A stretch of 64,000 nucleotides of DNA from Candidatus Zestomicrobium tamdykulense. GTDB lineage: Archaea > Thermoproteota > Thermoprotei_A > Sulfolobales > NBVN01. The DNA lies in NCBI GenBank assembly GCA_039889305.1, contig JAVVFV010000003.1, positions 511-64,510 of the forward strand. The letters are read 5' to 3'. Positions within the stretch are counted from its first letter, which is position 1. Each line of letters starts with the position of its first letter. A program made the translations under genes and the position numbers. Shown piece by piece: positions 1 to 15,177 of this stretch. Under the pieces are notes generated by a model. That model did not search any database. It worked only from the letters and a program-made list of their open reading frames with translations, and was not told the origin of the DNA.

Positions 1-370
1 TGAAGATATCCTCTGTTATGCCTGGCATGGTCGCAACTCTCGCACCTCTCTCAGTAGCTTCCTTCCTAGCCACTGTATGTGTTATAGATTTTGAGGTTGG
101 TGCTATCACTACGTTCGATGCTTTCATAGCCTCGGCTACAGGTTTAGGAGGTTCTTCCCCATGTATGCTCCTGGGAATCATCTCGACGTAAATAGCCTCA
201 GCTCCTAGCTCCTTAGCCTTAATCCATAAGTGAAGACCTATGTTCCTCAGAGGCTCGTCAGTAACTACCAGCACGGACTCGCCCGCCTTAACACGTAAGC
301 AACGTGTCAGGGCGATTTCCGCTGCGTTAAGTAGTGACTCCTTAATCACAACGCCTAAGTAGTGACTCAT
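1..370 (-). CDS. Aminopeptidase, M29 / leucyl aminopeptidase (AmpS/PepS-like), N-terminal part; runs off the window start
   Basis: Not in the ORF track. Manual translation from ATG at 370 gives MSHYLGVVIKESLLNAAEIALTRCLRVKAGESVLVVTDEP...HGEEPPKPVAEAMKASNVVIAPTSKSITHTVARKEATERGARVATMPGITEDIF. The GEEPP, SITHT.ARK and ATMPGI motifs are typical of this family. Confidence 0.8.
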   Translation of the reverse strand, partial: MSHYLGVVIKESLLNAAEIALTRCLRVKAGESVLVVTDEPLRNIGLHLWIKAKELGAEAIYVEMIPRSIHGEEPPKPVAEAMKASNVVIAPTSKSITHTVARKEATERGARVATMPGITEDIF

Positions 371-373
371 TCC

Positions 374-1039
374 CTACACCTCTATCAACTCTCTCAAAAC
401 ACGTCCTAACAAAGTTCTCGGGATGAGGACAGGCTTCCCCGAAGCTGTAGCTACTACTCTTTTAGCCTCTATACTGAAGCCTATACAGTCTAATACTATC
501 AAGTCACGATCACTTAATTCTTTGGAAGCTTCCGCCAAGCTGTTCAGAGTTCCTGTATAGGGTGATACGCTGAGAATCTTAATATCTGATGATATTTTGC
601 TCCACTTCCTCCTCGTTAGTCCTAATTGCGCAGGATCCGGCACTACTACGCCCAGCTTACCTACCTTAAGAGACTCAACAACCTTCAGAAGAAGATCTGA
701 GGGCTCAATCAACAACTTCCTAGACTTAAGTTCAGGGAATTCACCCGTACAGAGCAGCCCCAGCACATCTACGGAGGGTTCAAGCGAGTTAATACACTTC
801 TGCATCAGTGGGAGTATTCTCTCACGCGCGACCTTAACCTCAGCACCATCTCTAAGTCTAGTTACTAACACATACTCGCCCTCCCTAGGTGTGAGAGCCT
901 CGATTTCTTCCCTGCTAAGCTTATCTAGCGCACCACACTCAACTATTTCCACATCAGCGCCCTCCAACACCATCCTAATCTCAGGAACTACATCCACTCT
1001 AGGAGACTGACCTATAGTGATAAGACCCACCTTTCTCAC
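374..1039 (-). CDS. AroM family protein (Asp/Glu racemase-like fold)
   Basis: N-terminal GLITIGQSPRVDV, EYVLVTRLRDG, and two conserved cysteines (LLCTGEF, LDCIGF). Confidence 0.85.
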   Translation of the reverse strand: MRKVGLITIGQSPRVDVVPEIRMVLEGADVEIVECGALDKLSREEIEALTPREGEYVLVTRLRDGAEVKVARERILPLMQKCINSLEPSVDVLGLLCTGEFPELKSRKLLIEPSDLLLKVVESLKVGKLGVVVPDPAQLGLTRRKWSKISSDIKILSVSPYTGTLNSLAEASKELSDRDLIVLDCIGFSIEAKRVVATASGKPVLIPRTLLGRVLRELIEV

Positions 1040-1045
1040 GGTGTC

Positions 1046-2119
1046 TCACCACATCTTCTTACCAACGATAACCTCGACCTGCTTCAAGATCTCGGGATCC
1101 TTAACGCCTGCACCAAGCGGCACGAATTCCTTAGGAATCACCATAACGAGTACTTCATCACCAAATTTAATTTCCGCAGATGTGAGTGGTAAGGACGTCT
1201 TAAGATCTAGGGTTACTATGAGGTCCGGGAAGGTAGCTAGCCTTACCCCTTTCGTGTCCTCCAGCGTCATATACTCATTCCAGAACGTTATCTCGTAAGA
1301 CTTGAAGCCTCCCTTAACTATTACTCTACCTATGTCATATCCGCCACGCGTCTCTAGTGAGACGCTATCGACAACCCTCTTATCCACCACATGCCCACCA
1401 CCAAGATATCTAATCACCTCAGTCGCGATGCTTTCAGCGTCGCCATAATGCTTCTGCATTATCTTACCAACTTCTATGGCCTTACTGAGTGCTCCGACCG
1501 CAGCGTTTTCCCTTAGATAGTTAGGACTGACAGGATTACGTGTTACGGCCACCATACCACCTGCCTGCACTGATGCTTCCCTAATTAACTTATCGGTCTT
1601 CGCTAGAGATCCACGTACAACTACCTCCACATAAGTCCCTGCTTCCTTACTCCCGCCAACAGCTGCCTGCACTGAGACGTATTCTTTAATTTTATGAAGC
1701 CCCATAGAGCCCATCACGCCGGTTGGGTGTGCTCTGCCGTCAGCAGGTGCATCAATCACCGGGATTTCTAGAGCTGCTGCCGGTACCCATCCGTTAGCTG
1801 TTGATGCCCCGCCATTCTCAGACGATATAAAGCCCCCTATGCGTATTCCGCCGTAATCCATCAGTAGCTCAGCAGATCTGATCATGTGGTTTGGCTTCAA
1901 ATACTTCTCTTTCGCTGCAGGTGCTCCAACTATAGATGCTGTAACCACGTAACTATCTTTTGGAACCTCATCCACACTAACTATGTATAGATCACCTAAC
2001 TCAACAGATAATCTAGCACTCAGTAATCCTGTCTTAAGGTCACCTCCACCGCCGCCACCAAAGAAGGATCCGCCGAGAACTGCAGCTTCAGCTATCTTAT
2101 CATCGACCTTAATCCTCAC
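1046..2119 (-). CDS. DUF917 family protein
   Basis: GGSFFGGGGGG N-terminal motif, VGAP, SSENGG, DAPADGRAHP, and ENEY-like FWNEY and TFPDLI motifs. Confidence 0.85.
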   Translation of the reverse strand: MRIKVDDKIAEAAVLGGSFFGGGGGGDLKTGLLSARLSVELGDLYIVSVDEVPKDSYVVTASIVGAPAAKEKYLKPNHMIRSAELLMDYGGIRIGGFISSENGGASTANGWVPAAALEIPVIDAPADGRAHPTGVMGSMGLHKIKEYVSVQAAVGGSKEAGTYVEVVVRGSLAKTDKLIREASVQAGGMVAVTRNPVSPNYLRENAAVGALSKAIEVGKIMQKHYGDAESIATEVIRYLGGGHVVDKRVVDSVSLETRGGYDIGRVIVKGGFKSYEITFWNEYMTLEDTKGVRLATFPDLIVTLDLKTSLPLTSAEIKFGDEVLVMVIPKEFVPLGAGVKDPEILKQVEVIVGKKMW

Positions 2120-2787
2120 TTCGTAACACCTCCTACGGTTCTCTGTTTTAAGAGACTCAGCGTCACTGCGCCAGCAGCTATTACTGGATCTACTACAGGG
2201 ACTCCAGTTATTTCCTCAGCTATTCTGGCAAACCCTATTGTGGAGTATCCAGTACATGCGAGCACGATCACATTAACATCATGCTTGAGTAGGTCCTTCA
2301 ACGCCTTCTTGGCTGATTCCCTACCCCAGTCAGTCATTAAGTCTAATGTACTTTTAACTCCCTCAGGCTTTCCCTCAGCCACTAGGTGAGAGCCTAGAAC
2401 TCTCTTAATAACTTCCGGAGTATCTTCAGTAAGGTTCAGCACACCGACCTTATCACCGTAGGCTAGAGCGAGAGAAGCTGCTGCCGAACCAGCTCCTATA
2501 ACAGGTACTCTCAATTTCTTCCTAGCTTCCTTAACGGCTGGATCTGCGGCACAACTAACTATGATTGCGTTGACCCCCTCCCTCTCGAATTCCCTTGCTA
2601 GTCTGAGGATCTTAGGCTTAGCCAATTCCTCTGACTCACGATCGTAGATACTCTTAGGTTGATCCTCGATACACCTACTCACAACTCTTAACTCCGGGAA
2701 CGCCGACTCAATAATCTTGCCATGAAGATTTAGTAGCTCCTCATCCCTCGTTGTTAAAACCCTTATTAGTCCTATAACGTACTTCAT
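2116..2787 (-). CDS. Aspartate/glutamate/hydantoin racemase family protein
   Basis: Two-cysteine signature (IIVSCAADP ... IVLACTG) plus VPVIG and VPVVDP. Its stop overlaps the DUF917 start by 4 nt. Confidence 0.85.
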   Translation of the reverse strand: MKYVIGLIRVLTTRDEELLNLHGKIIESAFPELRVVSRCIEDQPKSIYDRESEELAKPKILRLAREFEREGVNAIIVSCAADPAVKEARKKLRVPVIGAGSAAASLALAYGDKVGVLNLTEDTPEVIKRVLGSHLVAEGKPEGVKSTLDLMTDWGRESAKKALKDLLKHDVNVIVLACTGYSTIGFARIAEEITGVPVVDPVIAAGAVTLSLLKQRTVGGVTK

Positions 2788-2805
2788 CTTAATTACTTAT
2801 ACAAT

Positions 2806-3753
2806 CTATTCAGGTATGTTCTTTCTGAACAAATCTGCAATAGGACCGTGTATCTTAATTATGGTTTCCCACTCCTGTGGGTCGTAGAATCTCGCTCTAC
2901 CCATGGTGAAGTCCTTAGCAACCTCCACAACGTACCTAGTTGATTGCTCCAGAGCTATGAAGTTAGTAGGTCCTGTCCCTGACCCCGGTAACGCCATCCT
3001 AGCGGTTATGGCGACCCCGACTACTGGCGCTTTCGTGTAGAGCCACGGCTGCATCATACTATTTATATGGTAAACCGGAGTTGAGTATGGTGTTATGTCT
3101 TGCATAGTTATCGGAACTATCACAGGTGGTTCGCCAGTGACCCTCACATATATATCTGTCAGGTCAGGACTGACTCTCAGTATCCAGCCCTCCTTAACTG
3201 TTGGGGTTATCGCGAAGCCTGTGTGTTTTATGACCCAGTTAGCCTTAGTAGCGTCAACTGAGAGTACAGCATCCATCTCATCCCTAACCTCCTTCTTAAG
3301 CAAAGTGAATATGTTAACTGGAGAATCCATCATAGGGACGGGCTTGTGCGGACGTGTCGGTGCGTTAGGACAGATATGGGTAGTAACGATGACGTCGCCT
3401 GGCAGCACATCCCCACGACTCCTCATTTCAGCGATCTTGTATGCCGTGGCAAGCGCGACAATCGCGCCGTCAGCGTCAGAAACCATACCCAAGTATGCGG
3501 GTCTAGCACCAATCCCTCCCAGCCTACCTATGACTCCCAGCGTCGGGGACGAGCCTCCTGAGCTCCTACCACTCATCCCAGGAATAACTATAGTTATGAA
3601 GTCTGTTGAGCCCTTATCCCCGTGAATCGTCTCCACAGAGACTTGAATATCGCTAAAACCCTTACCTACGAAGAATTTCCTAACGACCTCACCATTAACT
3701 CTAGGATCATCTAAGAGATCTATTACTTCTAACACGTGTTTTAGGGTAGACAT
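2806..3753 (-). CDS. DUF1177 family protein
   Basis: TLGVIGRLGGIGARP, VSDADGA, LPGDVIVTTHICP, LSVDATK and GSGTG motifs. Confidence 0.85.
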   Translation of the reverse strand: MSTLKHVLEVIDLLDDPRVNGEVVRKFFVGKGFSDIQVSVETIHGDKGSTDFITIVIPGMSGRSSGGSSPTLGVIGRLGGIGARPAYLGMVSDADGAIVALATAYKIAEMRSRGDVLPGDVIVTTHICPNAPTRPHKPVPMMDSPVNIFTLLKKEVRDEMDAVLSVDATKANWVIKHTGFAITPTVKEGWILRVSPDLTDIYVRVTGEPPVIVPITMQDITPYSTPVYHINSMMQPWLYTKAPVVGVAITARMALPGSGTGPTNFIALEQSTRYVVEVAKDFTMGRARFYDPQEWETIIKIHGPIADLFRKNIPE

Positions 3754-3944
3754 GACTAATCACAATCTAGAATACCTTAATATCATTTAAATATTTCAGT
3801 ATTCTTCAATATTAATTAATTCATGTTAAAGGCCTATTACAGTACTTCTTTTAACTTCATTGAATTAATTAGAATTAATTAACTAGAATTATTGATTAAA
3901 TTTAAATACTTGTTTCAAGATTAGTATGGTGTGATGATATCATA

Positions 3945-5554
3945 ATGTCTGAATCTAATGAGTATCACCCGAAATTGTATGAGCCTATCGTCATAATTAT
4001 AGGGCTTGCTCTAGCACTCTTTGGTGCTATAATCGGTATGGAACTAATAAGCAGGGTTGGTATCAACCCGAACACCTCGATTATTGGCGCTCTCATAGCT
4101 ATAGCTTTCTCAACCATTTCGCTAAGAGGATGCGTAACGTTCACAGAATCAATCTAATGCAGACAGTAATATCGGGAGCGACGTTCCAGGCCGGGAACGT
4201 GTTCCTGCTTACGATAGCTGTACCATATCTTCTGGGACTTACGGGAGGTATGTATTTCTATGGGGTCATAGTAGGGGTCCTCATCGCGGGTGTAGTAGAT
4301 ATATTGTTTGCTTACTGGATATTTGACTCGCCGTTCTACTCTGCTAGGAATCCATGGCCGCCAGGCATAGCTACAGCTGAGGCTATCAAAGCTGCCTTAG
4401 GTAGGGGTAAGAGAGCGCTACTTCTGCTCTATGGCATGATTTTTGGTGGAGCACTCACATACCTCGGCTATCCAGGCGACGTGGTCGGCATTACCCTTAT
4501 AACTCAGATAGTAGCTATAACGTCTTTCGGTATTGGTTTATTGTTGAGGGCGTACGGACCGACGCTGGTAGGTATAGATTTTTACAAGATATATGCACCA
4601 TAAGGTATAATGGTTGGTGCTGGTATTGCAGCACTGATTCAGTTCCTTCTTCTCTACCTTAAAGTCAGGAGGAGACAAACTACTCAATCAGTAACGGAAT
4701 CCACATCCAGCATTCCACCGACGCTCATCAGTGCAAACGAGGCTATAAGGAAGTTAGTTATGTCTTTAATTATTTTTGTGGCTGGTGCGTTAGTAGCTGG
4801 TTTAATAACTGGTGTTAGTGGTATGATGAGTTCTGAGATGTTCTTGTTGTGGGTCGTCTATATAGGTTTCCAAGCATGGTTCACAACTCTTATTTGTGCT
4901 CTCTCAGGAATGTATGCTGGCTGGTTCCCAGCATTCGCTACAGCACTAGCGTCATTAGTTATAAGCCTGGTTTTAGGCTTTCCACCACTAGCGGCAGGAA
5001 TAGGTGTAGCATATGTTGCTGCTACTGGGCCCGGGATGGCGGACCTCAACTACGACCTGAAGACTGGGTGGATCCTCAGGGGCGAGGGGAAGGACCCGAA
5101 TTTCGAAAGGATAGGAAGGAGATGGCAATTCTACACTAAGATACTTTCTCTAGCAGTAGCATTAACTATGGTTATTATATTCTACAACACGTACTTCGCA
5201 ACTCTAAACCTATATCCACCAGCATCCAGAGCCCTAGCAGCTACCGCTAAGGCAGCAGCAGATCCTGAGTTAGCGAGATGGTTGCTAACTTGGGCACCCA
5301 TAGGCTTCATACTGCAACTCGTCGGAGGGCCTGAAAGACAAATAGGGATACTCCTAGCTACAGGACTAATGATCCCCAACCCACCAGCCGGCATAGCTGT
5401 GCTAGTTACCGTAGCTGCCAGGCTAGCACTAACTAAAGCTCTGGGAGCTGAAAGGTTGAGGGACGTGTTCTACGTGGGTGGAGCCGGAGCAGTCGGAGGC
5501 TCTGCGATAATTTCGTTCATAGTATATACCTTAAGAGCTTACTTAAGGTTTTAA
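3945..5554 (+). pseudogene. OPT-family oligopeptide transporter, interrupted by a frameshift and an in-frame stop
   Basis: Three hydrophobic ORF pieces form one OPT-like protein (NTSIIGAL, NLMQTVISGATF, PWPPGIATAEAI, GPGMADL.YDLKTG, QLVGG..RQIGILLATGL). A T is missing at 4117-4119 (ATTTC for ATT TTC). An in-frame TAA at 4601-4603 sits within YAP*GIMVGAG. Confidence 0.8.
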
Positions 5555-5925: not shown

Positions 5926-6789
5926 TTATTCCTTCTCTAGGAACTCGCTAATCCTGATTAGGAATTTACTTACCTCCATCGGTATTAGTATTTTTGAGGA
6001 TGGTGCTACAGCTATTTTCTCGAGAGTTTCATAGTACTTGAGGAGTAGTGTGTTATGAGTTAATTGTCTGGCTGCTTCTTCAATCTCTAGTAAGGCTCTC
6101 TTCTTCCCTTCAGCTTCAAGTATTGCTGCCTGCATCTCACCTTCAGCTTTCTTTATCCTTGATTCTCTATAACCTTCAGCTTCAAGTATTGCTGACTGTT
6201 TCTTACCCTCAGCCTCAAGTATCATAGCTCTCTTAGTTCTCTCAGCAGCCATCTGCTTAATCATCGCTTCCTGAACCTCACTTGGTGGTTTTATCTCCTT
6301 GATTTCCACTGAAGTTATTTTTATCCCCCACCTGTCAGTTACTTCGTCTAGCTTAGCTCTAAGTGCTTGATTTATGTAGTCTCTACGTGCTAAGACATCA
6401 TCTAGTAGTAAGTCACCTACTATTGCTCTGAGGGTAGTCACAGCTATACCTGTAGACGCCATAACGAAATTCTGGACTGATTTGACCGCGAGCTCTGGAT
6501 CGAAAACCTTCATGTATATGAGTAAGTCTATGTTTACGGGCGCGTTATCCTTAGTAATACAGGTTTGGGGAGGTATATCAAGAACCATCTCCCTCAAATC
6601 AATCCAAGTTCCTGAGTCTATTATGGGTACTAGAAACACTAACCCAGGACCCTTAACTCCTATTATCTTACCTAACCTGAATACGACGAGTCTCTTATAC
6701 TCAGGCACTATCTTCAAGTGCGACAATATAACAGCAAGAACAATCACTAAGAACAAACCTAAAATAACAAGAGATACTATATCGATCAT
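5926..6789 (-). CDS. SPFH/band 7 (stomatin/QmcA-like) membrane protein
   Basis: N-terminal TM helix, GPGLVFLVP, ITKDN, TTLRAIVG, RWGIKIT and the AERTKRAMILEAEG coiled coil. Confidence 0.92.
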   Translation of the reverse strand: MIDIVSLVILGLFLVIVLAVILSHLKIVPEYKRLVVFRLGKIIGVKGPGLVFLVPIIDSGTWIDLREMVLDIPPQTCITKDNAPVNIDLLIYMKVFDPELAVKSVQNFVMASTGIAVTTLRAIVGDLLLDDVLARRDYINQALRAKLDEVTDRWGIKITSVEIKEIKPPSEVQEAMIKQMAAERTKRAMILEAEGKKQSAILEAEGYRESRIKKAEGEMQAAILEAEGKKRALLEIEEAARQLTHNTLLLKYYETLEKIAVAPSSKILIPMEVSKFLIRISEFLEKE

Positions 6790-6904
6790 ATTAAATCACT
6801 CAATTAACTTATGTCGTTTAAACCTAATAAATTGTAGTTGCAAAATGTAGGAATCCTGAATAAGAAACTCAGAGTTAGGATATACTAGGGTTATTCCTTG
6901 ACTC

Positions 6905-7402
6905 TTACTTAATAAGTTCTGGTCTTAAATAAAGCTTTAAGGAAGAACTACTTAAATCGGGATGTCTGACTTCAAGACACACTAAAGCGCCTGGACTTAA
7001 GTAGATTCTAAAACCACCTAATAATTCCTGAATGACGTCCTCAAGGCTTGGTGAGTGACCAACTAGTAGGATAGTGTCCTTGTCATCAAGACTCATCGAG
7101 TTAAGCAAGTATCTAAGATTATCTGAATCGAAATATTCTGGCAATAACTCATTCCTTTGAAGAATCTCACTAACTCCTAGGACCTCAGCAACTATTTCAG
7201 CAGTTTCTAGAGCTCTCTTAAGTGGGCTAGAAACTACGTATTTAGGTCTTAAACCAAAAACTCTAGCTACCTTAGCTACCTGGAGACGGCCCTCTTGAGT
7301 AAGAGGTCTCTCACTATCTGAAACCCCAGGCTCTTTGGATTCGGCTTCGCCGTGACGCATTAGGACGAGAAACATGTGTGCATACCTCAAGAATCTCTTC
7401 AT
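6905..7402 (-). CDS. sixA: SixA-type phosphohistidine phosphatase (histidine phosphatase superfamily)
   Basis: LMRHGEA, RPLT.EG, SSPLKRALETA and LLVGHSP. Confidence 0.8.
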   Translation of the reverse strand: MKRFLRYAHMFLVLMRHGEAESKEPGVSDSERPLTQEGRLQVAKVARVFGLRPKYVVSSPLKRALETAEIVAEVLGVSEILQRNELLPEYFDSDNLRYLLNSMSLDDKDTILLVGHSPSLEDVIQELLGGFRIYLSPGALVCLEVRHPDLSSSSLKLYLRPELIK

Positions 7403-7417
7403 ATGCTTCCTTAATTT

Positions 7418-8011
7418 TTATTTCTTTCTGAAAGCTCCCAGATACTTCATTATTTCCTCATACACAGCCCCGTTAAGCAATCCATCATTTTTCAAAGTAT
7501 TGAAGAGCTGGCGTGCAGTCATCACGTAATGATACTTCATCCCGAGAGCCCTCACTCTATCTTCAGCGCCTTGCTCTCTATCTACTATGACTAGAGCTCC
7601 TGTGGGGATGGCTCCTGAATTTCTTAGTATTTCGTATGTCTTCATTATTGAGTCTCCGGTCGTGGCTACGTCATCAACTATGAGTGAGGACCTACCTTCT
7701 ACTTCCCCCTCAACCTGACTAAGCATCCCGTGATCTTTTCTCTCAAGTCTGACGTAAGCCATCGGTTTATTGGTGGCGGCAGCTATGAAGGCTGCTAGAG
7801 CTACTCCTGAAGTAGCTACACCTACTAAAACTTCGTAGTGTGATAGGTTGATTTTCTTGGTTACTTCTTCTATTATTAGCTTCATTATTTTAGGGTAGCT
7901 ATATATTTTCCTCATATCTATGTAGAATGGTGAAGTTATTCCGGAGCTTAAGACGAATGACCCTATCTTGACGACTCCTACTTTATATAGTTCACGAATT
8001 AACTCCTGCAT
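7418..8011 (-). CDS. pyrE: Orotate phosphoribosyltransferase
   Basis: F.LSSG..SPFYIDMR, YVRLERKDHG and the PRPP loop IVDDVATTG.S. Confidence 0.95.
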   Translation of the reverse strand: MQELIRELYKVGVVKIGSFVLSSGITSPFYIDMRKIYSYPKIMKLIIEEVTKKINLSHYEVLVGVATSGVALAAFIAAATNKPMAYVRLERKDHGMLSQVEGEVEGRSSLIVDDVATTGDSIMKTYEILRNSGAIPTGALVIVDREQGAEDRVRALGMKYHYVMTARQLFNTLKNDGLLNGAVYEEIMKYLGAFRKK

Positions 8012-8679
8012 TCCCTAACCCTCTTTTCCTGCTCGTAAATAATTTTTTGAAGAGCTTCCCTAGGATTAGGAGAATTAGTTACGGCTCGCCCTACTATCTC
8101 GTAGTCGGCTCCGGAACATATAGCGCTGCCTGGTTCAGCACCTTGAGCTCCAACACCTGGTGAGAATATCCTTAACTCACTACCTGCTAATTCTCTAACC
8201 CTACCGATGACTTCCTTCCTAGTAGCTGGTGCTACAACACCCCAGACACGTAATTCTAGAGCAACGTTAACGAACTCACTCAAGTGCTTATCAATAAATT
8301 CTGTTGAGCCTTGATGACTCATAGAAACCACTAATATAGGCTTAATCCCTAATTCTTTAGACTTCATAACAAGAAGATCTAGCGCTCCACGCCTACCAAC
8401 AAAAGCGTGAGATATTACTGCATTCACACCTGCGTCAGCAAGAACCTCAACCACGTAAGACATAATATCTCCTATATCAGCTAGCTTGAGATCCGCTATC
8501 AGAGGCTTACTACACACACTAAATAAGTTCCTCAAACTACTTACTCCGGTTCTCAGTACTAGTGGGAGTCCTACCTTAAACGAGGAAACTAACTCACATA
8601 AGTAATTAACACGCTCTTTAACCCAACTCTCAGGTTCTACTTTAGGCGGAGGATCTAACGCTACTACTACTTTACTCAA
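7999..8679 (-). CDS. pyrF: Orotidine-5'-phosphate decarboxylase
   Basis: VALD, ADLKLADIG, SPGVGAQG and IVGRAV. Overlaps pyrE. Confidence 0.92.
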   Translation of the reverse strand: MSKVVVALDPPPKVEPESWVKERVNYLCELVSSFKVGLPLVLRTGVSSLRNLFSVCSKPLIADLKLADIGDIMSYVVEVLADAGVNAVISHAFVGRRGALDLLVMKSKELGIKPILVVSMSHQGSTEFIDKHLSEFVNVALELRVWGVVAPATRKEVIGRVRELAGSELRIFSPGVGAQGAEPGSAICSGADYEIVGRAVTNSPNPREALQKIIYEQEKRVRECRS

Positions 8680-8905
8680 ATGCCCGCTTAAAAAACCACA
8701 GAAAAGTTAATAAGCTTTACTATGTTTTGATTACCAACATAATATTTTCAAAACTAGCTTATAGTAGTTTCTACTAGTTCTTGTCTCAGAAATAATTATG
8801 GAAGTTAAGACAATAATCCGTATAACCAACACGAAAAGAACATTATGGAGGATTTTCTGGTACTCCTCGAATCACTACTTAATTTAAATAAGGAAGATAA
8901 TATTA

Positions 8906-10138
8906 TTGATGGTGTTTAATATGATATCACCTGTTCTTAACTACAGGGGTGTCATTGAAGAAATCTCTGGTGAGATCGCCTTCCAATATATATCTCGTGC
9001 TAAGGAGCTGGCTTCAAAAGGCTTTAGCGTGATATCGTTCGGGGTTGGTCAGCCTGACATTCCTACCCCACCACATATAATTGAGGAGGGTAAGAAAGCT
9101 CTTGACTTGAGATATACAGGCTACACTGAAACTGAAGGCATTAAGGAATTGAGAGAGTCGGTTGCTGAGTACTTAAACACTAGGTACGGTAGTGATGTCA
9201 GACCTGACGAAGTATTGATTACTATGGGAACGAAAGGTGCTGCTTACTTAGCTATGGCTGCTTACGTAAGACCTAATGATGAAGTCATAGTTACTGACCC
9301 AACATATCCAGTATACTCTGAGTTGCCTAAATTCTTCGGTGCGAGACCTGTTTACGTACCTTTAAAGTGGTTAGGTAGTGAAGAAGGCTTTGCACTTGAT
9401 CTCAACGCTATCCATGAATCAATAACTAAGAAGACTAGAGGAATCGCTATAGTAAACCCACATAACCCTACTGGTGCTGTCTTTAGTAGAAGAGAAATCG
9501 AGGGATTGATGGATCTTGCCAGAGATTACAAACTCCTCATATTTGCTGACGAGATATACGATAATTTCCTTTACGAGGACGCTGATTTTAAATCATTCAT
9601 GAGTTTTCCTGACTGGAGAGACTATATTCTTTACTGTAACGGTTTTTCGAAGACGTTCTCTATGACTGGCTGGAGACTCGGTTACTTAGTGGCGAGGAGA
9701 GAAGTCGCCAAGCTACTTATCAAGCTAGCTGTGAATACGTGGTCTTGCCCACCCTCAATCGCTCAGAAGGCAGGTATAACAGCTCTTAAAGGAGATTGGA
9801 CCCCTGTTAAGGAAATGGTGAGGTTATTTAATAAAAGAAGACTAACTCTCTACAACGAGTTAAAGAAAGTAAAGGGCTTTGAGGTCTGGAGAGGTAAGGG
9901 TGCCTTCTACTTATTCCCTAGGGTAGCTAAGCTGCTTGACTCAATAGGCCTTGACGTTGAGGCATTCGTTAACAAGCTAATAGACGAGAAATACGTTGTG
10001 ACTCTTCCCGGGACAGCCTTCCCGAGAGACTTCGGTAAGAACTATATCAGATTTAGTTACGCTGTAGATGAAGAGAAAATAATTGAGGGTGTTAGAAGGA
10101 TAAAAGAGCTTGTGGAGGAAATAACAGCGAAGACTTAA
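8906..10138 (+). CDS. PLP-dependent class I/II aminotransferase (aspartate aminotransferase-like)
   Basis: GVGQPD, NPHNPTG, DEIY, PLP lysine in FSKTFSMTGWRLG, GAFYLF and PGTAF. Confidence 0.92.
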   Translation: MMVFNMISPVLNYRGVIEEISGEIAFQYISRAKELASKGFSVISFGVGQPDIPTPPHIIEEGKKALDLRYTGYTETEGIKELRESVAEYLNTRYGSDVRPDEVLITMGTKGAAYLAMAAYVRPNDEVIVTDPTYPVYSELPKFFGARPVYVPLKWLGSEEGFALDLNAIHESITKKTRGIAIVNPHNPTGAVFSRREIEGLMDLARDYKLLIFADEIYDNFLYEDADFKSFMSFPDWRDYILYCNGFSKTFSMTGWRLGYLVARREVAKLLIKLAVNTWSCPPSIAQKAGITALKGDWTPVKEMVRLFNKRRLTLYNELKKVKGFEVWRGKGAFYLFPRVAKLLDSIGLDVEAFVNKLIDEKYVVTLPGTAFPRDFGKNYIRFSYAVDEEKIIEGVRRIKELVEEITAKT

Positions 10139-13851: not shown

Positions 13852-15177
13852 ATGCTTTCTGACGTAATTTTATTTGGGTCTATGATGAGCACTACTTCAA
13901 GATACTGTTTAGCTTTTTGGTTTGTTTTATTTATAGGTCTTATCATGGTTTCCGCAATAACGCTCATAGCATTACCACAGGGTAGGGTAGGCGTTGTTGC
14001 CGAGCTAACATCAACCATTGACGGGGGTGCTGTTGAGGTTGTTTCTCGTGCAGTGAGTGAGGCGGTTGGCAGGTCCTCTGTGTTAATACTGTATATAGAT
14101 AGTTATGGGGGGTATCTAACGGCAACAGATTCTATAATAAAGATAGTTATGGAGTCTGGTGTGGTGACTTACGTTTATATACCTCCCGGAGGTAAGGCAG
14201 CTTCTGCAGGGTCTTTAATAGCTTTGTTGGGTAGGAAGATCTTCATGGGTGAGGCGTCAACCATAGGTGCTGCGCAACCAAGCCCCTCAGACGAGAAAAC
14301 AATTAATTATGTTGTGGGTAGGTTTAGGTCTCTAGCTACCATAGCTTTCAAAGGTAATGAGACTTTAGTAAGAATTGCTGAGGAATTCGTAACTAAGAAT
14401 AGAGTTCTGAGCGCTGCTGAAGCTGTAGTGCTAGGTTTCGCAGAACCAGCTAACAGCTTAGAGGAAGTAAGACAAAAATTAGGACTTGACGAATTAGTTG
14501 TGGTTGGTTATACAGCTTGGAATCACTTAATATCTGTGTTCTCAGTACCCATAGTAAGTTCAATAGCTCTCATAGTAGGTATTGCTTTAATATTTATTGA
14601 ATTTGTTCAAGCAGGTTTTCAAGGGTACGCAATTGCTGGTATTGTCTTGATATTGCTTTCATTATACTCTATGTGGGTAGTTCCTGTAAGCCTCTTTGCT
14701 CTCTCACTACTCATAATGGGGTTAATTCTCCTTCTCATAGAGATACTGACTCCAGGATTCGGTGCTTTCGGAATAACCGGCCTAATACTCATGTTTGTTG
14801 GAGCTTACGAAACAATAACTAGAGAGTCTTTCGGAATTCCATCCATACTACCACTAGTTGTTGCAGCAGGTTTCGCGATGTTGGGAGGTTTGATGATTTA
14901 CGTTGGGTATGAGGCCGGGAAAGTCAGGAGACTTAAGACTAAGACGCTTCGTGAGAAACTAATTGGTGAGGTTGGGATAAGTAAAACCAGATTAACGCGT
15001 GAGACGCCGGGCGTGGTTCACGTGCTTGGTGAGGACTGGACAGCATACTCTGTTGACGAAGTAATAGAGCCTGGGACCAAGGTTAAAGTAACTGATGTTA
15101 AGGGTCTAACACTTTACGTCTCTAAAATCGGTGAATTCACTAATGAGTCAGGAAGGTCTAGATTACAGGAGAGTTAG
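13852..15177 (+). CDS. NfeD family membrane-bound serine protease (stomatin operon partner); likely start ATG 13882
   Basis: IDSYGG, KAASAG (catalytic Ser), STIGAAQP, TM block with EILTPGFG, and C-terminal OB domain GEDWTA. Confidence 0.9.
   Translation: MLSDVILFGSMMSTTSRYCLAFWFVLFIGLIMVSAITLIALPQGRVGVVAELTSTIDGGAVEVVSRAVSEAVGRSSVLILYIDSYGGYLTATDSIIKIVMESGVVTYVYIPPGGKAASAGSLIALLGRKIFMGEASTIGAAQPSPSDEKTINYVVGRFRSLATIAFKGNETLVRIAEEFVTKNRVLSAAEAVVLGFAEPANSLEEVRQKLGLDELVVVGYTAWNHLISVFSVPIVSSIALIVGIALIFIEFVQAGFQGYAIAGIVLILLSLYSMWVVPVSLFALSLLIMGLILLLIEILTPGFGAFGITGLILMFVGAYETITRESFGIPSILPLVVAAGFAMLGGLMIYVGYEAGKVRRLKTKTLREKLIGEVGISKTRLTRETPGVVHVLGEDWTAYSVDEVIEPGTKVKVTDVKGLTLYVSKIGEFTNESGRSRLQES

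Follow-up and report, generated by a model that had tools for sequence, protein, structure and literature searches.

The first 5,554 nucleotides (nt) of a 64,000-nt stretch of DNA from the archaeon Candidatus Zestomicrobium tamdykulense (Sulfolobales; contig JAVVFV010000003.1, positions 511 to 64,510 of the forward strand), here called the window, carry a run of five genes that code for a DUF1177 protein, a two-cysteine racemase, a DUF917 protein, an AroM-family protein and an M29/NicX-like metalloenzyme, and that lie opposite a gene of the OPT transporter family. We propose that this module, a conserved operon, serves to catabolise or salvage small cyclic amides derived from peptides, with 2,5-diketopiperazines as the most likely substrates and rings of the hydantoin or succinimide type as less likely ones. 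We put the probability of this explanation at roughly 0.4, and we infer both the substrate class and the assignment of each hydrolase to its step. The module itself is real; it is subject to strong purifying selection and is either ancient or highly mobile. The copy in the window is a further member of catalogued families, in a cluster type that is already described and uncharacterised.

According to the proposed scheme, the substrate would be taken up by the OPT transporter, or in other organisms by an Opp/Dpp-type ABC transporter or an NCS1 permease. The two proteins with a racemase fold, the racemase and AroM, would invert the C-alpha centres of the ring by two-base proton transfer, funnelling all stereoisomers into one. 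DUF917 and/or DUF1177 would open a ring that ordinary peptidases cannot cleave, and the M29-like exopeptidase, or a PepE, M20 or M24 enzyme in other lineages, would split the linear product to amino acids. These enzymes would operate as two pairs, the first consisting of the hydantoin-type two-cysteine racemase with DUF917, translationally coupled by a 4-nt overlap, and the second of AroM, with the same two-cysteine arrangement, and DUF1177, with its Zn-exopeptidase-type fold. In a narrower version of the scheme, which we consider rather unlikely, DUF1177 and/or DUF917 are ring-opening cyclic dipeptide hydrolases, the racemase and AroM each epimerise one stereocentre, and LL, LD, DL and DD forms are all converted to cleavable dipeptides; this would be the first genetically defined pathway of diketopiperazine degradation.

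One genome per GTDB species was scanned for DUF1177, which gave more than 580 loci. Eighty of these were analysed, representing 65 lineages after the Streptomyces loci had been collapsed. Genes were taken from a greedy gene call and counted as neighbours if they lay within 6 kb of DUF1177, and lineages in which DUF1177 had 5 kb or more of sequence on each side, 29 in all, were treated as a fully sampled subset. DUF1177 was accompanied by AroM in 37 of the 65 lineages, by DUF917 in 26, by the racemase in 25, by OPT in 16, by an Opp/Dpp ATPase in 14 and by an M29-like gene in 12. Within the fully sampled subset the corresponding frequencies were 69% for AroM, 62% for a transporter of any kind, 45% each for the racemase and an exopeptidase, and 41% each for DUF917 and OPT; peptide transporters were the commonest kind of carrier (55%), and NCS1 permeases were found in 7%. 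The lineages covered include Thermoproteota, Thermococcales, Nitrososphaeria, Bathyarchaeia, Methanomethylicia and an Asgard metagenome-assembled genome (MAG) among the Archaea, and Bacillota, Actinomycetota, Proteobacteria, Chloroflexota and Bipolaricaulota among the Bacteria. The genes of the module are therefore co-conserved in both domains far beyond chance, as the grouping drawn from the window alone (the sequence-only reading) had required.

While gene order varies among lineages, two pairs persist. The racemase and DUF917 genes are adjacent in 16 of the 18 loci that have both, and DUF1177 and AroM in 26 of 38; racemase and AroM adjoin one another in a single locus out of 20. We read the module as two epimerase-hydrolase pairs, racemase with DUF917 and DUF1177 with AroM.

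Complete versions are found in distantly related organisms. In Pyrococcus horikoshii OT3, for which independent gene calls exist, one operon contains the racemase (PH1054), DUF917, DUF1177, AroM, M29/NicX and OPT genes in that order, flanked by AsnC regulators. Two AsnC/Lrp-type regulators bracket this cluster (L085:6690-7178 and 14241-14822; L numbers denote the loci of the survey), a second, more divergent NicX/M29-like paralogue follows it (L085:13253-14305), and genes for an SSF permease and an M20 peptidase lie just downstream. All six genes are also clustered in Thermoanaerobacter, together with a PucR-family regulator. A protein of about 285 amino acids (aa) with no Pfam match is encoded after the M29-like gene in Thermoanaerobacter (L086:11007-11867) and in Tissierella (L055:12570-13421); the two copies share 46% identity (BLASTP E 1e-73), and the protein may be an additional part of the Bacillota module.

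Elsewhere the transporter is of the Opp/Dpp ABC or NCS1 type, the peptidase belongs to M20, M24 or S51, and the regulator is of the IclR family. The order in Erwinia and Serratia is IclR, OPT, DUF1177, AroM, S51 and racemase. The S51 gene of the Erwinia, Serratia and Enterobacter clusters (L037:11630-12322, L060:11631-12323 and L039:11631-12323) is a true orthologue of pepE, the gene for an Asp-Xaa dipeptidase, with about 72% nucleotide identity between the Erwinia/Serratia gene and E. coli pepE. When 5426 E. coli genomes were searched for the enterobacterial cluster, pepE was present in all of them and the other cluster genes in none. PepE-like S51 genes also flank DUF1177 in Streptomyces, Prauserella and Janthinobacterium, and NCS1 permease genes adjoin it in Streptomyces, Caldivirga, Vulcanisaeta and a Eubacteriales MAG. 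The minimal set, found in Streptomyces, consists of S51 (PepE-like), IclR, DUF1177 and the NCS1 permease; apparent M20 matches in this genus proved to be shadow open reading frames (ORFs) overlapping the NCS1 gene and were discounted.

The racemase of the window (2116-2787, minus strand; 223 aa) matches PF01177 (Asp_Glu_race) with 94.1 bits against a cut-off of 31. Its best solved relative is P. horikoshii PH1054 (PDB 2eq5), annotated as a hydantoin racemase, with E 5e-91 over residues 2-218. Cysteines C79 (in VSCAADP) and C178 (in LACTGYS) are invariant in all 18 orthologues and align with Cys79/Cys184 of the allantoin racemase KpAllR and Cys90/Cys199 of OpaE, the experimentally defined catalytic cysteines of those enzymes (PMC12661438). 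The N-terminal 29 residues do not align with the structure 3qvj; the substrate contacts in allantoin racemase are Asn12, Thr118 and Thr119. By its sequence the protein is a member of the hydantoin/allantoin subfamily, whose known substrates are free rings, diketopiperazines included (PMC12661438). NozR, which belongs to the same subfamily as OpaE, acts as an epimerase in the pathway that makes the diketopiperazine cyclo-D-Trp-D-Trp (PMC12661438). The window racemase shares with these epimerases of diketopiperazine-type rings the subfamily and the cysteine pair aligned to that of OpaE, but the resemblance is weak (E 1e-5), and NozR and OpaE, of actinomycete and fungal origin, both serve biosynthesis.

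AroM (374-1039, minus strand; 221 aa, GTG start) matches PF07302 over all 219 profile positions (E 4.7e-73) and the NCBIfam model PRK10481 with 222.7 bits, above the cut-off of 198. A sequence search of the PDB with this protein gave no meaningful match. Its cysteine pair is formed by C97, found in 38 of 38 sequences, and C185, found in 36 of 38, and so the paired cysteines that had been noticed in both racemase-fold proteins are conserved.

DUF917 (1046-2119, minus strand; 357 aa, GTG start) has a two-domain Pfam match, PF06032 (S-Me-THD_N) followed by PF20906 (S-Me-THD_C), and matches the PDB entry 2o3i with E 6e-11. The thiohydantoin and S-methyl thiohydantoin desulfurases, which catalyse steps of ergothioneine catabolism, belong to the same two-domain family and align with it over their full length. 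However, the window protein scores 307 and 272 bits against the two NCBIfam desulfurase equivalogs (NF058529 and NF058532), below their cut-offs of 440 and 450, and no ergothionase- or urocanase-like genes lie nearby. It is probably a desulfurase paralogue with a different ring substrate. An AlphaFold2 (AF2) model of DUF917 was of high confidence (predicted local distance difference test, pLDDT, 92.8), and a fold search with it returned 2o3i alone, a structural-genomics member of its own family.

DUF1177 (2806-3753, minus strand; 315 aa) is the first gene of the operon and encodes a putative metallohydrolase. It matches PF06675 with E 1e-122 (408 bits; cut-off 25) and has more than 7000 homologues or database clusters, with 67-91% identity inside the sampled archaeal groups and 51-58% to Bacteria. 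The AF2 model has a pLDDT of 80 and a predicted template modelling (TM) score, pTM, of 0.87. In a Foldseek search with this model the top 50 matches were all Zn exopeptidases (M17, M28, M20 and GCPII types) or glutaminyl cyclase, with E values from 5e-8 to about 1e-4 and TM scores of about 0.5. The protein is thus confidently modelled with a Zn-exopeptidase-type fold, which answers in the affirmative the question, raised by the sequence-only reading, of whether it resembles a Zn peptidase. The alpha/beta fold of the model is common to the co-catalytic Zn exopeptidases (M28 SGAP/AAP, M17 LAP and M20 DapE; clans MH and MF) and glutaminyl cyclase; the identity to these enzymes is only 7-16%, no hidden Markov model (HMM) or profile link was found, and their canonical H-D-E-D/E-H ligand pattern is not recognisable. 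Invariant residues of DUF1177 include D93, D95, D167, D219, H229 and E277; H126 is present in at least 90% of sequences, and C128 is not invariant. These acidic and histidine residues could form a metal site, as had been suspected from D/H-rich motifs. One apparent motif match, DUF1177 VSDADGA with M17 NTDAEGR, was rejected, since hhalign against E. coli PepA gave a probability of 0.1%.

The fifth gene runs past the edge of the window, and its visible 5' part (1-370, minus strand; start codon at 370-368) comprises 123 codons, with the catalytic portion located beyond that edge. This fragment has no Pfam match and is clearly related (phmmer E 2e-62) to the 330-aa orthologue from a Zestosphaera MAG (L002), which in full length passes Peptidase_M29 (PF02073) with 47.5 bits; the L081 orthologue matches both NicX and Peptidase_M29. 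Among solved structures, the best relative of the fifth protein is NicX, a dioxygenase (E 1e-10), with the aminopeptidase PepS ranking behind it. The orthologue carries the motifs PSGEAY, GEFGIG, HIALG and HLDG, with a Glu in GEFGIG where NicX has a His, a pattern that we take to be peptidase-like from the Glu/Glu/His/His/Asp metal-ligand motifs of M29 enzymes. The label of M29 aminopeptidase originally given to this gene thus holds through its full-length orthologues, and not through the fragment itself or its best solved relative.

The ORF list and translations place the five genes on the minus strand in the order DUF1177, racemase, DUF917, AroM and M29/NicX-like. The intergenic distances are 18, -4, 6 and 3 nt, the negative value being a GTGA start/stop overlap between racemase and DUF917, and the ORF coordinates bear out the tight operon that had been described, with gaps of 18 nt or less and one 4-nt overlap. 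The nearest relatives of the window proteins come from Zestosphaera and Desulfurococcales MAGs, at 89-91% identity. Upstream of DUF1177 lies a 191-nt intergenic region (3754-3944) with a GC content of 21.5%, compared with 40.7% for the whole window. It contains two TATA-like TTTAAA boxes, one 38 nt upstream of the ATG of DUF1177 and the other 44 nt upstream of that of OPT, positions that would fit archaeal promoters ahead of both divergent starts. An Rfam scan for a riboswitch as a clue to the ligand found no match at the window module or at nine bacterial loci. Brevibacillus thermoruber has a purine riboswitch (L080:14454-14553, 65.6 bits) some 1.8 kb downstream of its module, before the next gene but one, and this riboswitch does not appear to control the module.

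GC content in 2-kb windows of positions 1-5554 is 44-48% (up to 50% in 500-bp coding windows), compared with 37-43% for positions 6000-64000; the higher value of the operon could reflect either horizontal acquisition or the Gly/Ala/Pro-rich make-up of highly conserved proteins. The flank at 5926-10138 holds ordinary housekeeping genes, for an SPFH/Band-7 protein, a histidine-phosphatase-family protein, a phosphoribosyltransferase, an orotidine monophosphate (OMP) decarboxylase and a class I/II aminotransferase. The phosphoribosyltransferase and OMP decarboxylase genes, which overlap by 13 nt, are probably pyrE and pyrF.

The OPT gene itself (3945-5554, plus strand) is a pseudogene. It is broken into three ORFs (3945-4157, 4130-4603 and 4610-5554), whereas intact orthologues are 537-540 aa long. 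Nucleotide alignment with five orthologues revealed a 10-nt deletion at about 4117/4118, which shifts the frame, and a TAA stop in frame at 4601-4603, in place of the CAA or CAG (Gln) of the four closest orthologues and the CAT of the L010 orthologue; neither lesion has the look of a homopolymer sequencing error. In a tblastn search with the intact 539-aa L002 orthologue, identity was 83% (404/485) in the main frame and 70% (43/61) in the N-terminal piece, with two frames used and an internal stop present. None of the pieces has a significant Pfam match, the best being OPT at E 0.014 and 14.5 bits, under the cut-off. Intact orthologues pass Pfam OPT (PF03169) with 47.8-90 bits against a cut-off of 25.8, and the window pieces match these orthologues with E values of 3e-27 to 7e-170. 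The ratio of nonsynonymous to synonymous substitution rates (dN/dS) is 0.03-0.10 for the OPT pieces and 0.04-0.14 for the intact enzyme genes, rough values given that dS is near saturation. Because the ratio of the pieces is no higher than that of the enzyme genes, the sequence comparison suggests that the lesions are recent. Hence the divergent arrangement across an AT-rich spacer stands as first described, but the gene on its far side no longer encodes an intact transporter.

With the importer dead, the five enzyme genes, which are intact where visible, must use a substrate formed inside the cell or another importer. The closest relative with the oxidase genes described below (L001:6476-9573 / L081:4266-8573) has no OPT gene, and an ABC importer of the SBP_bac_1/6/8 type is encoded divergently from its DUF1177; such an importer is a possible alternative route of uptake, relevant given the loss in the window. 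Split OPT genes were also seen in a Sulfolobales MAG (L007:8888-9895) and in Bacillus (L052:7289-8904), and the racemase gene is divided into two ORFs both in Thermoanaerobacter (L086:7332-7981) and in a Nitrososphaeria MAG (L017:2-732). These split genes may reflect recurrent decay or assembly error.

In the L001/L081 sister operon, which is 90% identical, and in an Ignisphaera operon, the M29-like gene is followed by genes of the nitroreductase and DUF6092 families, the two families that compose cyclodipeptide oxidase (CDO; CDOA PF00881 and CDOB PF19585). The CDOA/CDOB-like pair is present in L081, L001, L010, L012 and L041 and absent in L002; the window operon leaves the window before that point. 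[quoted passage not shown] The families brought together there are those of the window module. DUF1177 is an extra family on the window side, with no mention of it in the CDO-cluster passage of the preprint (10.1101/2023.09.25.559410) or in the supplementary files of PMC11055893, and conversely CDO genes are rare when viewed from DUF1177.

How, then, should the module be read? Its partners are importers with binding proteins, regulators of catabolic type (IclR, AsnC and PucR) and exopeptidases, with no synthetases, and this argues that a small, peptide-like nitrogen compound is catabolised or salvaged. No CDPS, nonribosomal peptide synthetase (NRPS) or other synthetase was found in any neighbourhood examined. 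A free cyclic amide is favoured over a damaged linear peptide because the racemase belongs to a ring-specialised subfamily, the relatives of DUF917 act on thiohydantoins, and links to CDO-like and NCS1 genes recur. Diketopiperazines are the leading candidate, since their two stereocentres match the two epimerases and since they resist peptidases. Ordinary peptidases do not cleave them (PMC3852281). The same source describes a Streptomyces strain that degrades cyclo(Asp-Phe) inducibly, and several hydantoin-hydrolysing strains that also degrade diketopiperazines, with no genes assigned (PMC3852281). Our literature search turned up only the CDO survey and the OpaE paper; it yielded no functional study of DUF1177, DUF917, AroM or PH1053-PH1058 and no named diketopiperazine-hydrolysing gene. 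An Asp-containing substrate, whether cyclo(Asp-X) or an isoAsp or succinimide species, is kept in play by the pepE link and has some support.

Several observations weigh against the cyclic-amide explanation. OPT carriers are known for the transport of linear tetra- and pentapeptides. DUF1177 occurs without any partner gene in 5 of the 29 fully sampled lineages (17%), and CDO-like genes accompany it in just 4 of 65. The only recorded chemistry of DUF917 is thiohydantoin desulfuration, the window protein falls under both equivalog cut-offs, and its fold, with 2o3i as sole match, yielded no mechanistic clue. The likeness of DUF1177 to metallopeptidases is structural only, at a TM score of about 0.5 and with putative metal ligands; PDB searches with the single sequence and with a 36-sequence profile gave no match. 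We know of no DUF1177 or AroM member with an assayed activity.

The alternative closest to what the window had first suggested is the repair or salvage of linear peptides containing D-Asp, isoAsp or succinimide residues, in which the racemase-fold proteins would epimerise the damaged residue, DUF917 or DUF1177 would resolve the isopeptide or imide, and the exopeptidase would finish the job. The pepE orthologue inside the Erwinia, Serratia and Enterobacter clusters and the PepE-like S51 genes beside DUF1177 elsewhere speak for it, as does the fact that OPT and Opp/Dpp peptide importers are the commonest transporters; aminosuccinimide, moreover, is a five-membered imide that would resemble a hydantoin. 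Yet no IadA-, IaaA- or PIMT-type gene is among the recurrent neighbours, the CDO-like and NCS1 links better match small heterocycles, and the substrates known for hydantoin/allantoin racemases are free rings (PMC12661438). Heat damage is not required either, because the module is widespread among mesophiles such as Streptomyces, Serratia, Erwinia and Bacillus, and the high-temperature rationale attached to the original idea can be dropped. The scheme as the sequence-only reading had it is also weakened by the inactivated OPT importer gene of the Zestomicrobium genome and by the putative standing of the DUF1177 metal ligands. We therefore judge this alternative unlikely. The general frame of epimerising, ring-opening and hydrolysing a peptide-derived compound is still the best available, with free rings favoured over damage to linear peptides.

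Quite improbable, in our estimation, is the non-canonical use of hydantoins or ureides, in which the racemase would equilibrate a 5-substituted hydantoin or an allantoin-like ureide, DUF917 would stand in for the hydantoinase and DUF1177, with its M20/M28-like fold, for the N-carbamoyl-amino-acid amidohydrolase, giving an amino acid, NH3 and CO2. Canonical hyu operons encode an NCS1 permease, a hydantoin racemase, a hydantoinase and an N-carbamoyl-amino-acid amidohydrolase of the M20 or nitrilase type, and the formal analogy is one-to-one: the racemase has its subfamily and its Cys dyad in common with theirs, the logic of permease, racemase and two hydrolases is shared, and NCS1 genes lie beside DUF1177 in the lineages named above. 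The PucR-family regulator of Thermoanaerobacter, the thiohydantoin activity of the NCBIfam-named DUF917 relatives and the annotation of PH1054 point the same way. By Pfam, however, the window operon has neither an amidohydrolase-superfamily hydantoinase nor an M20/nitrilase-type carbamoylase, DUF917 and DUF1177 occupying those positions. The module adds AroM, an exopeptidase and peptide-type importers; AroM, as a second racemase-fold protein, would have no role in such a pathway, and nor would the peptide transporters (55%) and exopeptidases (45%) that outnumber NCS1 (7%). No other ureide-pathway genes are among the recurrent neighbours. A biosynthetic or tailoring cassette of CDPS/CDO type, for a modified cyclic dipeptide or another peptide-like secondary metabolite, seems very improbable. 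CDO-like genes are present in some versions, NozR and OpaE are biosynthetic (PMC12661438) and the option was raised in the part of the CDO survey that treats these clusters (PMC11055893), but none of the neighbourhoods examined holds a synthetase gene, importers with their solute-binding proteins, exopeptidases and regulators of catabolic type make up the partners, and the distribution includes small-genome, peptide-fermenting hyperthermophiles. That the genes are merely unrelated neighbours, brought together by chance or annotation noise, is refuted by the neighbourhood survey and has a negligible probability: DUF1177 does stand without partners in the 5 lineages mentioned, but the same rare families accompany it in many phyla with their order shuffled and their pairs kept, and in the window the reading frames overlap or nearly abut and the enzyme genes have dN/dS values of 0.04-0.14.

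Looking to the biology of these families, the window copy on its own adds little; it stands out mainly for the recent loss of its importer alongside enzyme genes that remain under strong purifying selection. DUF1177, AroM and the DUF917 proteins outside ergothioneine catabolism are widespread families without an assigned function that travel together, with peptide importers and exopeptidases, in organisms as different as Pyrococcus, Serratia and Streptomyces, and the cluster is present in hosts that are genetically tractable. If the cyclic-amide explanation is correct, the module would supply concrete candidate genes for diketopiperazine degradation, an activity without an assigned gene (PMC3852281).

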